Assembly (NCBI RefSeq): GCF_013167455.1
Contig: NZ_CP038328.1
Strand: one strand, 5' to 3'
DNA from: Escherichia coli O157:H7
GTDB lineage: Bacteria > Pseudomonadota > Gammaproteobacteria > Enterobacterales > Enterobacteriaceae
Length of the DNA stretch: 64,000 bases
The notes under the pieces were generated by a model, which worked only from the letters and a program-made list of their open reading frames with translations, did not search any database and was not told where the DNA came from. Shown one piece after another: positions 43,498 to 48,866 of this stretch. Position 1 is the stretch's first letter. The number at the start of each line of letters is the position of its first letter. The position numbers and the translations under genes were made by a program.

Positions 43498-43857
43498 TTA
43501 CTCAGCAACTTCCTGCTTACGGTTACGCATCTTCGCGCCAATCCAGAACACCATAATGACGGAGAGTACTGCCGGGAAGAAGTTAGAGCCGATATCCGGA
43601 TATTCCGCACGAACTACCGTGCTGTACAGCAGTACGCCGAGAATAAAACAGGCAGCTGCCAGACCCGGCAAGCCTACCGGCATGGTGCGATTAAGATAAC
43701 GTTGATGCAGGCAGTAAACCGTCAGCACCAGGGAAATAATCGGGAATACAGAAAATGGCACAATGGAGCTAAACAGCGCTGCGAAAGTACCATTAATCGA
43801 TAAGCCAGCAACCAACGCCAGCAGCAGCGTACCTCTATCTTGATTTGCTTGTTTCAT
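43498..43857 (-). CDS. yijD: small inner-membrane protein, 119 aa
   Basis: ORF track; hydrophobic helices; start abuts the fabR stop. Confidence 0.9.
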
Positions 43858-44561
43858 TACTCGTCCTTCACATTTCCCGGAATAATTGCGGTTTTCTCTT
43901 GTTCACGGCGATACCAGTAATAAGCCCCTTTCGAAATCATTCGCAGTTGCAGTACCAGTCGCTCTTCTAATTGCCGACGTTGTTCAACGCCGACGTCCAA
44001 CGCCTCGGCACCCGCACTGAAGACAATTGTCACCATTGCTTCGGCTTGCGCTTCAGTAAACGCACGCGGCATATGGTTTTCGAGTTCCAGATAGTCCGCA
44101 AGTTCCGCAATGAAGTGCTGAATTTCACGCGCAACGGCGGCACGAAACGCAGCGGAGGTGCCGGAGCGTTCCCGCAATAATAACCGGAAGGCGTTAGGAT
44201 TATTACCGATGAACTCCATAAATGTGGAGACCGAGGTGCGGATCACACTCCCGCCTTTGGCGATACGCTGACGCGCCTGGCGCATGAGTTGGCGTAGCAT
44301 TAAACCGCTCTCATCAACCATGGTCAGACCCAGTTCGTCTACGTCTCGGAAATGCCGATAAAAAGAGGTGGGAGCAATGCCCGCTTCACGCGCCACTTCA
44401 CGCAAACTCAGGCTGGCGAAGCTGCGTTCAGCACTTAATTGGCTAAATGCGGCTTCCACCAGCGAACGGCGGGTTTTTTCTTTTTGTTGCGCTCTTACGC
44501 CCATCACGATGTCTGAATCCTTGCCAAAAGTACTGCTGGCACTATACCAGAGAATGAACAT
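43857..44561 (-). CDS. fabR: TetR-family repressor of unsaturated fatty-acid synthesis (start ambiguous: 44504, 44561 or 44600)
   Basis: ORF 43857..44600; Tet[23 protein letters not shown]; in-frame candidate starts MGVRAQ (44504) and MFILWY (44561). Confidence 0.88.
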
Positions 44562-44610: not shown

Positions 44611-45927
44611 TTACTGCAATTCTTTGGCCGGTTCTTTTACGTACAACAACGCCAACATCGACAGCAACGTGCCTCCACCCAGATACCACGCCGGAGCCGT
44701 CAAACTATCCAGCAACACGATGGATTGCGTAGCGAAATATTGAGCAAAACCGCCAAAGATTGCCACACCAATGCTATAAACCAGCGCAAAACCCAATGCC
44801 CGAATCCGTTTCGGCAACAGTTCAGAGATCAACAACATCACTGGCACACCGCCAAGCGTGGTAAAGCTGACCATCACGAAAACCACCGTCAGCAACATGC
44901 CTGGGCTTGGGTAATTCACCAACAGCCAGAATGACGGCCAGCTACAGATCAGCACCATCACACGGGAGATTAAAATCAGCTTTTTACGCCCGACCGAATC
45001 GCACAACATCCCCACCAGCAGCGCACCCACAAACGTAATAACGCCCGCCAGTAACATCGCTGCATGAGAATAGTTTTGGTTCATTCCTAAATACTTCGCC
45101 GCCCATGTACCGTAATAAAAGAGGGAGATATAGGTTGCGACTGTACTACCAATAGCGAGCAAGATACCGTTAGCGATAGTCGCTTTATGTTGCATAAGTA
45201 AGGAGAAGGCGCTTTCGCTGGCTGCGGCCTTCTTATTATGTGCTGGCTCAGGAACATCATTTTCCAGACTCAAACGCAACCAACAGCCGACAGGCGCTAA
45301 TAACACGCCAATAAAAAACGGCACACGCCAGCCCCATTCAGCCATGACGGTTTCTGAACCGGTCGCAAAGGGCAGCCATGCACTTAAACCTAAAGCGACA
45401 ACACCTCCAAAAGTTGTTGCCAGGCCTTGAGTCGCCAGTGACCAACTGCTGTAAAAACCGCGACGATTTGCCGGAGCTGATTCAACCAACAAAGACATTG
45501 AGGCACCGACTTCGCCTCCTGCCGCAACGCCCTGAATTAGACGCGCTAGCACCAGCGTCGCGGTTCCCCAATAGCCCGCCGTTTCATACGTCGGTGCGAT
45601 GCCGATCATCAGTGTACCAAGACTCATCAGCGCAATGGTGAACACCATCGCGGGTTTGCGTCCGAAACGATCGGCCCAGGCCCCCACAATAATGCCGCCG
45701 AGCGGGCGCATAAAAAAGCTCACGCCGAAAGTGGCAAACGCCAGCAGTAGCGCGACGTTTTTATCTGCACTGGGCGGAAAAAATAGCGTGCTGATATAGA
45801 CCACAAAAAAGTTGTAAACGCCAAAATCAAAAAATTCGAGCGCATTGCCAAACGCCGAGGCAAAAATCACCCGCCTGCCGCTGGGCTTTTTCTTCACACT
45901 CACGGTTTCATTTACGATCGCCGTCAT
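44611..45927 (-). CDS. MFS transporter, metabolite:H+ symporter (MHS) type, 438 aa; accessory
   Basis: ORF track; multiple TM helices; MFS signature [10 protein letters not shown] between TM2 and TM3; AAGGAA SD upstream; 42-bp gap from the upstream hydrolase gene. Confidence 0.85.
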
Positions 45928-45969
45928 TCCATGTTCCTTGCCAAAAAGTGTTGTTGTGTGTTGTTTTAT

Positions 45970-47136
45970 TTATTGCAGCCAGGCTTCTACCAGTGCGCCC
46001 CAGTAGCTGCTTGCCGGGACCAGACTTGCATCGTTGAAGTCGTAACCCGGGTTATGCACCATGCAGGAACCTTCCCCGACATCGCCATTACCGAATAACA
46101 GGAAACCGCCTTTGGGTTGGGCTTCCAGCATGAAAGAGAAATCTTCACTGCCCATCAGGGGCTTGATGCCAAACTCGGCCCGATCTTCACCAAACGTTTT
46201 ACACGCCACCTGCCAGGCGAAGCGCGCCATCTCCTCGTCATTTACTAATACTGGTGTACCGTTAACATGCGTAACCTCAGCCGTAGCGCCAAAGCTGGCA
46301 GCCTGGGCTTGTGCCAGAGCAGGAATACGGGTCAGAAGAAGTTGTCGGGTATCGCGGCTAAGAGAGCGGACGCTGATTTTCATCTCAGCACTGTCAGGAA
46401 TGACGTTAGCCGCCTCACCCGCAACAATGCTGCCGACGGTAATTACCGCCGCTTCCAGCGGATCGACATTGCGTGACACAATGCTTTGTAATGCGGTGGT
46501 GATATGTGCGGCAACTAGCACCGGATCGATGGCTTTGTGCGGGATCGCACCGTGTCCGCCACAACCACGAACTGTAATATGGAACTGATCCATTGACGCC
46601 ATCAGTGCCCCTGGCTGGAAATAAAACTTACCCACCGGCAGACCGGGCATGTTATGCATGCCGAAAATGACATCGCAGGGGAAATGATCAAAAAGCCCCT
46701 CTTTAACCATGATCTCACCGCCATTAATCATCTCTTCCGCAGGCTGGAAGATAAGACGTAACGTGCCGTTAAAACGGCGGGTTTCGGCAAAATAACGCGC
46801 GGCCCCCAGCAGTATGGTGGTATGCCCGTCATGCCCGCAGGCGTGCATTAAACCAGGATGTTTACTGGCCCAGGGCTTGCCACTATTTTCATAAATCGGC
46901 AGCGCATCCATATCCGCCCGCAGGCCAATACTTTTCTCTCCGTCGCCCACTTTTAACGTGGCCACTATCCCCGTCGTCGCCAGTCCTTGCTCTACTTCAT
47001 AGCCCCACTGACGCAGCTTTTCCGCAACCAAAGCACTGGTTTTAAATTCTTGTAATCCCAGCTCCGGGTTTTCGTGGATCTGATGGCGGATCTCACGCAG
47101 TTCTTCCTCAAACCCTCGAATATAGTGTTCGATCAT
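45970..47136 (-). CDS. M20D-family amidohydrolase (hippurate-hydrolase / N-acyl-amino-acid amidohydrolase-like), 388 aa; accessory
   Basis: ORF track; metal-binding motif ACGHDGH, QPAEE, GMHNMP; AAGGAA SD 6 nt upstream of the ATG. Confidence 0.85.
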   Translation of the reverse strand: MIEHYIRGFEEELREIRHQIHENPELGLQEFKTSALVAEKLRQWGYEVEQGLATTGIVATLKVGDGEKSIGLRADMDALPIYENSGKPWASKHPGLMHACGHDGHTTILLGAARYFAETRRFNGTLRLIFQPAEEMINGGEIMVKEGLFDHFPCDVIFGMHNMPGLPVGKFYFQPGALMASMDQFHITVRGCGGHGAIPHKAIDPVLVAAHITTALQSIVSRNVDPLEAAVITVGSIVAGEAANVIPDSAEMKISVRSLSRDTRQLLLTRIPALAQAQAASFGATAEVTHVNGTPVLVNDEEMARFAWQVACKTFGEDRAEFGIKPLMGSEDFSFMLEAQPKGGFLLFGNGDVGEGSCMVHNPGYDFNDASLVPASSYWGALVEAWLQ

Positions 47137-47465
47137 CGGCTATTCCTTTATTCACTTATAAACAGGCTAATTAACGGATTTTATTGATGGTGTAAATACA
47201 AATAACTCATCAATATAAAATATTTATATGTTTGTTTTATAAGAAGATTTCACAAAGACAATAACAAAAAAGCACGCTTCGGCAAGATAAAACTATCAGC
47301 CATAATAAAAAGCGATTAATAGTGAATAAATGGGTTAAGAAGGAGGCAGACAAAGCAAAGGCCGCTCACGCTATAGCCAGATTAATGACGGGGATCAATT
47401 GGCTTACCCGCGATAAAATGTTACCATTCTGTTGCTTTTATGTATAAGAACAGGTAAGCCCTACC

Positions 47466-48866
47466 ATGCCACATTCCTACGATTACGATGCCATAGTAAT
47501 AGGTTCCGGCCCCGGCGGCGAAGGCGCTGCAATGGGCCTGGTTAAGCAAGGTGCGCGCGTCGCAGTTATCGAGCGTTATCAAAATGTTGGCGGCGGTTGC
47601 ACCCACTGGGGCACCATCCCGTCGAAAGCTCTCCGTCACGCCGTCAGCCGCATTATAGAATTCAATCAAAACCCACTATACAGCGACCATTCCCGACTGC
47701 TCCGCTCTTCTTTTGCCGATATCCTTAACCATGCCGATAACGTGATTAATCAACAAACGCGCATGCGTCAGGGATTTTACGAACGTAATCACTGTGAAAT
47801 ATTGCAGGGGAACGCTCGCTTTGTTGACGAGCATACGTTGGCGCTGGATTGCCCGGACGGCAGCGTTGAAACACTAACCGCTGAAAAATTTGTTATTGCC
47901 TGCGGCTCTCGTCCATATCATCCAACAGATGTTGATTTCACCCATCCACGCATTTACGACAGCGACTCAATTCTCAGCATGCACCACGAACCGCGCCATG
48001 TACTTATCTATGGTGCTGGAGTGATCGGCTGTGAATATGCGTCGATCTTCCGCGGTATGGATGTAAAAGTGGATCTGATCAACACCCGCGATCGCCTGCT
48101 GGCATTTCTCGATCAAGAGATGTCAGATTCTCTCTCCTATCACTTCTGGAACAGTGGCGTAGTGATTCGTCACAACGAAGAGTACGAGAAGATCGAAGGC
48201 TGTGACGACGGTGTGATCATGCATCTGAAGTCGGGTAAAAAACTGAAAGCTGACTGCCTGCTCTATGCCAACGGTCGTACCGGTAATACCGATTCGCTGG
48301 CGTTACAGAACATTGGGCTGGAAACTGACAGTCGCGGACAGCTGAAGGTCAACAGCATGTATCAGACCGCACAGCCGCACGTTTACGCGGTGGGCGACGT
48401 GATTGGTTATCCGAGCCTGGCATCAGCGGCCTATGACCAGGGGCGCATTGCCGCGCAGGCGCTGGTAAAAGGCGAAGCCACCGCGCATCTGATTGAAGAT
48501 ATCCCTACCGGCATTTACACCATCCCGGAAATCAGCTCTGTGGGCAAAACCGAACAGCAGCTGACCGCGATGAAAGTGCCATATGAAGTGGGCCGCGCCC
48601 AGTTCAAACATCTGGCACGTGCACAAATCGTCGGCATGAACGTGGGCACGCTGAAAATTTTGTTCCATCGGGAAACAAAAGAGATTCTGGGCATTCACTG
48701 CTTTGGCGAGCGCGCTGCCGAAATTATTCATATCGGTCAGGCGATTATGGAACAGAAAGGTGGCGGCAACACTATTGAGTACTTCGTCAACACCACCTTT
48801 AACTACCCGACGATGGCGGAAGCCTATCGGGTAGCTGCGTTAAACGGTTTAAACCGCCTGTTTTAA
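47466..48866 (+). CDS. sthA: soluble pyridine nucleotide transhydrogenase, 466 aa
   Basis: ORF track; [27 protein letters not shown]-binding N-terminus. Confidence 0.96.

Follow-up and report, generated by a model that had tools for sequence, protein, structure and literature searches.

The abgR-abgABT system of E. coli K-12, which takes up and hydrolyses p-aminobenzoyl-glutamate, places a TIGR01891 amidohydrolase beside a proton symporter, as does the cassette described here. A divergent LysR regulator, with AbgR as its best model (34% identity), also accompanies the Burkholderiales version of our gene module. Unlike abgR-abgABT, the cassette has an MFS/MHS-like transporter instead of AbgT, no AbgB and, as seen from the ORF listing, no regulator gene in Escherichia. 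For the hydrolase alone, solved relatives are B. subtilis YxeP (1ysj), the Arabidopsis IAA-amino-acid hydrolase ILL2 (1xmb), the Corynebacterium enzyme 6slf and the S. aureus SACOL0085-type peptidase (4ewt). Our hydrolase aligns with these over its full length (E 1e-64 to 1e-71) and shares with them the two-domain architecture, catalytic plus dimerisation, and the metal-ligand motifs. Each of the four has its own different substrate and is clearly diverged from the hydrolase in the alignments, and because of this they do not predict what the hydrolase cuts. HipO of Campylobacter jejuni is also an M20D enzyme, to which the gene owes its 'hippuricase' and K01451 labels, the likeness being one of name transfer and family alone. 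The transporter finds its counterparts among the metabolite/H+ symporters (MHS, TC 2.A.1.6), where TcuC/CitH, KgtP, ProP and ShiA account for the top five NCBIfam matches, aligned end to end (TIGR00883 positions 1-392 of 400). A further comparison is with the GcvB regulon, whose amino-acid and peptide transporter mRNAs have a C/A-rich element upstream of the ribosome-binding site, as the permease does; unlike in those targets, the permease site is purely predicted from sequence.

The window, i.e. the whole stretch of 64,000 nucleotides of E. coli O157:H7 DNA that was analysed, holds the cassette with fabR/yijD (minus strand) on one side and sthA (plus strand) on the other (Table 1). An earlier note on this DNA had described two co-oriented genes separated by 42 nt, both with an AAGGAA Shine-Dalgarno sequence; the ORF coordinates match this exactly, and AAGGAA lies 6 nt 5′ of the ATG in both. 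These are real genes rather than chance ORFs, since RefSeq annotates both in 1505 complete genomes. Alignment to strain E118 and MG1655, of the kind the note had proposed together with a pan-genome comparison, fixed the junctions of the strain-specific DNA at 44647/44648 on the left and 47346/47347 on the right and showed both genes to be absent from K-12. In MG1655 and E118, fabR and sthA are divergent and 331 bp apart by the PGAP fabR start (276 bp by the MG1655 annotation), close to the 330 bp that the note had given for K-12. The net size difference from the empty site is 2627 bp (2699 bp against a 72-bp filler). Going downstream from the permease stop, fabR follows in the same direction after 103 nt (PGAP start) or 49 nt (K-12 start), and no canonical intrinsic terminator was found between the two. 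The note's remark on lack of mobility genes and repeats and on host-like composition also held: the junctions show neither integrase or IS ORFs nor flanking direct or inverted repeats, and the GC and GC3 values of the two cassette genes (0.535/0.555 and 0.515/0.567) match those of the neighbouring core genes. Thus the marks of a recently acquired islet or mobile insertion, namely mobility ORFs, junction repeats, odd composition and a clean empty site, were not seen.

Table 1. Features of the fabR-sthA region in the window (strand in brackets; "." where no strand applies)
Feature	Position	Strand	Remarks
M20D-family metallo-amidohydrolase gene	45970..47136	(-)	388-aa ORF; Sakai ECs_4892, EPEC E2348C_4277
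MHS-like MFS proton symporter (permease) gene	44611..45927	(-)	438-aa ORF; Sakai ECs_4893, EPEC E2348C_4278
Spacer between hydrolase and permease genes, 42 nt	45928..45969	(-)	holds the permease AAGGAA and a C/A-rich element
Predicted GcvB pairing site ACACAACAACAC	45948..45959	(-)	permease ATG -32..-21
AT-rich cassette-specific region 5′ of the hydrolase gene	47137..47346	(-)	28.6% GC; presumed operon promoter/operator
End of the permease gene, 37 nt (codons 428-438, stop and one extra base)	44611..44647	(-)	putative deletion relic; kept in all cassette-less E. coli
2699 bp for which K-12-type genomes have a 71-72-bp filler	44648..47346	(.)	from alignment with the empty site
fabR, PGAP start	43857..44507	(-)	K-12 annotation start = 44561
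sthA, divergent neighbour	47466..48866	(+)	ORF; the 119 bp upstream (47347-47465) are common to K-12

The Pfam and HMM scans that the note had put forward as a check place the proteins in the M20D (over cutoff) and MFS families. In the hydrolase the catalytic domain Peptidase_M20 (PF01546, residues 72-384, 1.2e-43) is interrupted by M20_dimer (PF07687, residues 184-279, 1.8e-12), and TIGR01891 scores 358.9 bits against a cutoff of 153.75 over profile positions 1-363 of 366, so the M20D assignment stands well above threshold. The motifs ACGHDGH (residue 99), QPAEE (131), GMHNMP (159) and HNPGY (361) are present, and the ligand motifs HACGHDGH, QPAEE, GMHN and HNP align with 1ysj, 1xmb, 6slf and 4ewt. 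The best PDB matches are YxeP 1ysj (1.9e-71), ILL2 1xmb and the N-acyl-glutamine aminoacylase 6slf. A homologue search with the hydrolase brought up mostly near-identical E. coli entries and was uninformative about other genera. The permease has the MFS fold by Pfam (MFS_1 1.5e-28, and Sugar_tr across both halves) with the MFS motif at residue 82. All its best NCBIfam matches are MHS models, led by TIGR00883 (metabolite/H+ symporter, 325.5 bits, cutoff 443.45) and TcuC (PRK15075, 285.3 bits, cutoff 445), and followed by KgtP-like PRK10406 (214.9, cutoff 550), ProP (206.8, cutoff 544) and ShiA (186.2, cutoff 538). It stays under the curated cutoffs of TIGR00883 and of every NCBIfam MHS member model, which points to a divergent subfamily; the permease is, as judged from these profiles, a divergent branch that would work like an MHS carrier. 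The note's organic-acid:H+ permease is thus retained as MHS-type, with sub-cutoff scores, but not its use of GxxxDRxGRK as the marker, for this is the general MFS motif A and alone does not point to organic-acid symporters.

None of the three database names, 'hippuricase', 'abgA' and 'citrate symporter', is supported. Labels such as 'Hippuricase' and 'hippurate hydrolase' do exist, as the note had said, and along with KEGG K01451 hipO and the occurrence of the cassette in the extraintestinal B2 lineages listed they would suit hippurate utilisation, with the hydrolase acting as HipO and the permease taking up hippurate from urine or gut. We consider this unlikely, as the names are homology transfers, the hydrolase passed no equivalog-level model (no HipO equivalog is in its NCBIfam output) and its best solved relatives act on other substrates (YxeP, IAA-amino-acid hydrolase, N-acyl-glutamine aminoacylase). 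Also against it, the nearest models of the permease are tri-/dicarboxylate carriers and not aromatic-acid carriers (TIGR00895 gave only 52 bits), and E. coli is, to our knowledge, classically negative for hippurate hydrolysis. It may be added that hipO appears in a clade-marker table in the literature.

The note had taken the cassette to be inserted between fabR and sthA. Across 5426 complete E. coli genomes there are essentially two alleles of the locus: 1505 have the intact gene pair and 3918, K-12 included, carry one single scar allele, made of the final 37 nt of the permease with its stop codon and then the 72-bp filler. The note's other suggestion, an old strain-variable locus, is supported. 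Both genes are annotated in all of the approximately 85 cassette-bearing records listed (of 1505), and no genome among the 5426 has only one of the two, save one record split at the origin. A third allele, in strain RM13322, has a poly-G tract and was set aside as probably an assembly artefact. The relic encodes a C-terminal tail that lines up, in register, with the C-terminal ends of the Burkholderia and Pseudomonas homologues, and the order sthA-M20-MFS-fabR recurs in E. albertii, an E. fergusonii-labelled genome and one cryptic-clade Escherichia. Because K-12-type genomes (E118 and MG1655) hold this 37-nt relic with its family-type tail and three other Escherichia lineages carry the pair at this very site, the K-12 fabR-sthA interval appears to be a deletion scar and not an ancestral empty site, contrary to what 'inserted' had implied. 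The opposite polarity, i.e. an accessory cassette gained in the O157 lineage with K-12 as the ancestral empty site, draws on the absence of both genes from K-12 and 72% of complete genomes and on the closest non-Escherichia homologues being at most 63% identical and in Betaproteobacteria (among the 600 species-representative candidates listed). Yet the 'empty' site has the permease stop and last 11 codons aligning with native homologue tails, the site is occupied with species-level divergence in E. albertii, the E. fergusonii-labelled genome, the cryptic clade, B2 and O157, and the cassette comes with host-like GC and without integrase, IS or target-site repeats. For E. coli the insertion reading is already contradicted and we give it very little credence; an ancient horizontal origin before the genus Escherichia diversified is plausible.

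Cassette divergence between Escherichia lineages is of the same order as flank divergence. The locus is a recombination mosaic: the B2 and E. albertii cassette alleles are nearly identical across about 800 nt, and the permease shows an O157-B2 dS six times as high as that of the flanks. Some of the between-species sharing could be homologous exchange instead of strict vertical descent. To trace its source, the 72-bp filler was aligned locally with either strand of three cassette alleles, where the best score of 16 against a shuffled maximum of 17 was not significant; with such a filler in place, the event behind the scar was not a simple clean deletion. Both cassette genes are under strong purifying selection (dN/dS of 0.02-0.04 for the hydrolase and 0.03-0.04 for the permease). 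Values of 0.02-0.04 in all pairwise comparisons, together with retention of both genes in the records listed, argue for a long-term function of the pair. The direction of a well-known difference between K-12 and O157 is corrected, in that the 330-bp fabR-sthA interval of the reference strain would be a deletion scar with the tail of a transporter gene. An intact and selectively maintained operon persists in about 28% of sequenced E. coli, the listed O157:H7, ST131 and EPEC E2348/69 genomes among them.

Whether the two genes belong together was judged from loci in other genera. A hydrolase gene followed by a permease gene at 20-250 nt is found in nine loci, in Burkholderia, Paraburkholderia, Pseudomonas, Pseudochelatococcus and a proteobacterial MAG (metagenome-assembled genome), which strengthens the note's reasoning from hydrolase plus permease, the same ordered pair being seen in Burkholderia, Paraburkholderia and Pseudomonas. 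In several of these loci an AbgR-like LysR regulator is the sole other conserved neighbour, and no catabolic genes that hint at a substrate lie beside the nine. The Silvimonas homologue, which at 63% identity is the closest outside Escherichia among the matches listed, has no adjoining permease and uninformative neighbours. The pair might instead be unrelated neighbours, a citrate/tricarballylate proton symporter beside a housekeeping-type deacylase, as the PGAP product name of the permease ('citrate-proton symporter') and the second rank of TcuC among its NCBIfam matches would have it. This is hard to credit, given the TcuC score of 285 against a cutoff of 445, the recurrence of pairing, order and spacing in distant genera where all else differs, and the joint gain or loss of both genes in Escherichia (5426 genomes, the one exception being the record split at the origin). 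Least probable of all, and barely credible, is a second system for the folate catabolite p-aminobenzoyl-glutamate with the hydrolase as AbgA: the Sakai RefSeq record does label ECs_4892 abgA, the hydrolase and AbgA are both TIGR01891 members and Burkholderiales versions of the module have an AbgR-like LysR regulator, but identity to K-12 AbgA is 28% with a large share of gaps (15%), the hydrolase matches the Abg-type protein in the PDB at 126 bits and YxeP at 244, and neither an AbgB partner subunit nor an AbgT-family transporter adjoins, so that close similarity and both Abg partners are missing.

The reading that we favour, and think likely, is an operon of two chromosomal genes for catabolism or scavenging, native to Escherichia and devoted to uptake and hydrolysis of an amide, of which 2.7 kb were lost once toward the K-12-type strains. 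A promoter in the AT-rich 210 bp 5′ of the hydrolase gene would drive transcription of the hydrolase and then the permease. The MHS-like permease would, by its family, import an anionic amide with a proton, most likely an N-acyl-L-amino acid or a close conjugate or dipeptide-like compound with at least one free carboxylate. In the cytoplasm the M20D metallo-amidohydrolase, presumably a dimer with the conserved Cys/His/Glu/His/His metal site, would cut the amide to a free amino acid and a carboxylic acid, and both products may then enter general metabolism. The gene pair would have been at the fabR-sthA site before E. coli diversified, and one deletion or replacement in the lineage toward K-12-type strains probably took the 2.7 kb, leaving the 37 nt and the filler. 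The upstream region showed no strong match to sigma-70, CRP-like, sigma-54 or LysR-dyad consensus patterns, and scans for terminators and Rfam families gave nothing. Searching the literature by locus tag and name turned up no biochemical or genetic functional study of either protein. In a published microarray of cells in glucose minimal medium (PMC2241611), ECs4893, a tag that we mapped to the permease gene, changed by log2 +2.09 at the transition to stationary phase. The permease mRNA is thus induced at least 4-fold on entry into stationary phase, when carbon is exhausted. The cassette is well-catalogued and fairly ordinary accessory metabolism, not a new kind of system, and the locus makes a simple candidate for lineage-specific nutrient use.

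A bolder form of this proposal, which as a whole we hold to be speculative and rather improbable, is that the operon serves GcvB-controlled, starvation-induced scavenging of an anionic N-acyl amino acid from host or diet, as part of an ancestral Escherichia niche toolkit lost once in the K-12-type (A/B1-like) lineage, with read-through into fabR. Under it, induction of the permease operon would raise fabR transcription because no terminator separates the two, and if this is true the read-through would be a regulatory link in a quarter of E. coli that is invisible to K-12 studies.

As for GcvB, its R1 seed and target motif CACAaCAY were taken as quoted in PMC5286369. The element ACACAACAACAC is a perfect 12-nt complement of GcvB nt 75-86 (the R1 seed), 20 nt 5′ of the permease ATG, and this C/A-rich 12-mer contains CACAACAA, to be compared with the consensus CACAaCAY. 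An R1 complement at or just upstream of the ribosome-binding site, as expected of a GcvB target, is thus present, and we propose the permease as a new predicted GcvB target whose translation GcvB would probably repress through this site. Since RNA duplex energies with GcvB did not discriminate, exact-complement counts were used in their place: ACACAACAACAC is the sole 12-mer complement to R1 within the 64-kb window, and a 12-nt complement was reached by 22 of 20000 composition-matched shuffles of the spacer. No GcvB chimeras with ECs4892/ECs4893 (EHEC CLASH) or E2348C_4277/4278 (EPEC RIL-seq) are among the entries listed, where the operon may have been silent in the conditions used. An ECs4892-RyeB hybrid in the EHEC CLASH data comes from a single read and was rejected as too weak. 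The 42-nt spacer is identical in the O157, B2, E. albertii and cryptic-clade alleles, but we did not take this conservation as a sign of function, local divergence being low anyway in a recombination tract. In the E. fergusonii-labelled allele the spacer is diverged yet still C/A-rich, and it offers a different 12-mer that pairs with GcvB nt 71-82, a match seen in about 0.1% of shuffles per allele.

We aligned the K-12-type site, read from strain E118 and MG1655 and lacking the hydrolase-permease cassette, to the window. Homology coming from fabR extends to 44647, taking in the final 37 nt of the permease gene with the stop codon, and picks up again at 47347, with a 71-72-bp filler in the K-12-type genomes where the window has 2699 bp. 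For this filler, present in all cassette-less E. coli (1849-1920 of comparison record L001, and its equivalent in the MG1655 record L084), we found no detectable source, no similarity to the cassette and no second genomic copy. Eleven permease codons are retained in K-12, and the 37-nt relic is genuine permease sequence and not earlier intergenic DNA, because the tail it encodes is in register, and of equal length, with the C-termini of Burkholderia and Pseudomonas permeases (homologue tails such as MKETAGRAID and LKEYAGRALD). Also, the gene order oxyR-sthA-hydrolase-permease-fabR-yijD-trmA-btuB is found in E. albertii, in a genome labelled E. fergusonii and in one cryptic-clade Escherichia, and in comparisons between species the cassette genes and their flanking genes show synonymous divergence of similar magnitude. 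The cassette is present in 1505 of the 5426 complete E. coli genomes and a single shared scar allele, the K-12-type site, in 3918. No mobility genes were seen among the ORFs of the window and no repeats at the junctions, and the GC and GC3 values of the cassette are host-like. Taken together, these features make the K-12 state the derived one, having arisen by one deletion or replacement of an ancestral Escherichia operon. The earlier note had called the pair an old strain-variable islet inserted between fabR and sthA; the islet stands, the insertion does not, as the K-12-type site keeps the permease tail and the same site is filled in three other Escherichia lineages. This evolutionary polarity is the chief correction to the first reading. 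It may be noted that strain RM13322 (L086 3224-3433) apparently lacks fabR and the 5′ portion of yijD, but a long poly-G tract is found there, so that faulty assembly is more probable than a third allele. Two of the locus matches fall on records classed as plasmids.

The dN/dS values of both genes are 0.02-0.04 in all comparisons, and both are therefore maintained as functional under purifying selection. On comparing the O157 allele with that of FDA strain Seattle 1946 (ATCC 25922, phylogroup B2), the permease dS is 0.46 against 0.07-0.08 for fabR/sthA, about six-fold. Between hydrolase nt 496 or so and permease nt 100 or so, the B2 allele is near-identical to that of E. albertii. The locus is thus a recombination mosaic, which makes purely vertical descent less secure for any one species but does not do away with the evidence of the K-12 relic. 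In E. albertii NBRC 107761 (L004 7156-7158 region) a tryptophan codon of the hydrolase gene, codon 386, is replaced by a stop, making the protein 3 residues shorter.

The window is DNA of the E. coli O157:H7 type, and the 3.3 kb around the cassette are 100% identical to O157:H7 strain Z1811. The cassette is a genuine operon of two genes, intact and widely annotated, both genes belonging to known families, and the ORF pair described in the earlier note was recovered in the ORF listing at the coordinates given there, with AAGGAA 6 nt ahead of the ATG in both ORFs and every motif quoted there.

Features of the cassette locus, with positions in the window
Feature	Position	Strand	Remark
Hydrolase ORF, 388 aa	47136-45970	minus	first in transcription direction
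Spacer, 42 nt	between hydrolase and permease ORFs	minus	
Predicted GcvB site, ACACAACAACAC	45948-45959	minus	-32 to -21 of permease ATG, 20 nt upstream, within the 42-nt spacer
Permease ORF, 438 aa	45927-44611	minus	
fabR	103 nt past permease ORF	minus	followed by yijD
sthA	329 bp from hydrolase ORF	plus	divergent

The hydrolase carries Pfam Peptidase_M20 with the M20_dimer domain inserted, and scores 359 bits against TIGR01891 (amidohydrolases), passing the curated cutoff of 154. Full-length alignments to the solved M20D enzymes YxeP, ILL2, N-acyl-glutamine aminoacylase and a staphylococcal M20D peptidase have E-values of 1e-64 to 1e-71, and in them the Cys/His/Glu/His/His ligand motifs coincide. 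Its scores against NCBIfam equivalog models of particular activities (CpsA, DoeB2) lie far under the cutoffs. The name abgA, aminobenzoyl-glutamate utilization protein A, given in RefSeq to the Sakai gene ECs_4892 (L085 2885-4051), is an over-annotation since identity to K-12 AbgA is only 28%; no AbgB or AbgT partner is present at the locus. Hippuricase, hippurate hydrolase and hipO are likewise rejected as names transferred within M20D. The permease is an MFS transporter by Pfam, and its top five NCBIfam matches (TIGR00883, TcuC, a KgtP-like model, ProP and ShiA) are all metabolite:H+ symporters. All five MHS models align end to end, each scoring under its own cutoff; the protein behaves like a divergent MHS carrier. 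Relatives among solved structures are remote. The RefSeq name citrate-proton symporter is not accepted, the TcuC/PRK15075 score being 285 against a cutoff of 445.

Homologues were scanned with one genome per species, over a list of 600 candidates. The best match listed is E. albertii at 97% protein identity; the others among the matches listed are at most 63% identical, most of them belonging to Burkholderiales, Pseudomonas and Alphaproteobacteria. At nine of those loci the hydrolase gene is likewise followed by a co-oriented gene for an MHS-like permease (36-45% identical), and an all-against-all flank comparison gave a divergent LysR regulator, best modelled by AbgR, as the only other recurring neighbour. 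The pair is thus a conserved module. Its architecture parallels that of abgR-abgABT, except that in the Escherichia cassette the regulator was lost or never there. Within the 5426 E. coli genomes the two genes are co-present or co-absent.

Ahead of the hydrolase gene lie 210 cassette-specific bp with 28.6% GC, in which neither a strong consensus promoter nor a CRP-like site, a sigma-54 motif or a LysR dyad was found; no Rfam family matched in the cassette region. In glucose minimal medium the Sakai permease gene ECs4893 was up by log2 2.09 at the stationary-phase transition, and its co-expression cluster includes acs, aceB, argT and dps (PMC2241611), which fits a starvation-induced scavenging role. 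The main new lead is a predicted site for the sRNA GcvB at the permease. The 12-mer ACACAACAACAC is a perfect complement of GcvB nt 75-86, inside the R1 seed (seed region and target consensus CACAaCAY as in PMC5286369), and is the sole 12-mer complement to R1 within the 64-kb window; 12 nt were reached in 22 of 20000 composition-matched spacer shuffles. The fergusonii-labelled allele, whose spacer has diverged (L088 5168-5210), has a different 12-mer in a shifted register that pairs with GcvB nt 71-82. No GcvB chimeras with either gene occur among the entries listed in the EHEC CLASH and EPEC RIL-seq tables.

We propose that the permease would bring in an anionic amide of the N-acyl-L-amino-acid type together with a proton, and that the cytoplasmic dimeric metallo-amidohydrolase would cleave it to an amino acid and a carboxylic acid. 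Both products would enter central metabolism, as no further pathway genes are linked, and GcvB is predicted to lower permease translation while amino acids are plentiful. Because the permease resembles tri- and dicarboxylate carriers, a substrate bearing two or more carboxylates, such as N-acyl-Asp/Glu or an N-dicarboxy-acyl amino acid, may be mildly favoured.

As no canonical terminator lies between the permease stop and fabR, transcriptional read-through into fabR-yijD is possible. It may be noted that fabR is annotated as 216 aa by PGAP (start at 44507) and 234 aa in MG1655 (44561), giving a gap of 103 or 49 nt to the permease stop, and that an 8-bp hairpin (44579-44560) overlaps the longer start. 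A minus-strand 12-mer with the RBS included, TTTTGGCAAGGA, occurs at 44518-44529 and 45935-45946, preceding the PGAP fabR start and the permease ATG, respectively; this repeat could be due to chance, with about 0.3 such repeats expected in 3 kb. In EPEC E2348/69 (L093 5311-5401; 4492310-4492400) the published RIL-seq tables show abundant chimeras of Spot 42 (spf) with the region of the fabR 3′ end and yijD start, which suggests an action of Spot 42 on yijD translation, unrelated to the cassette.
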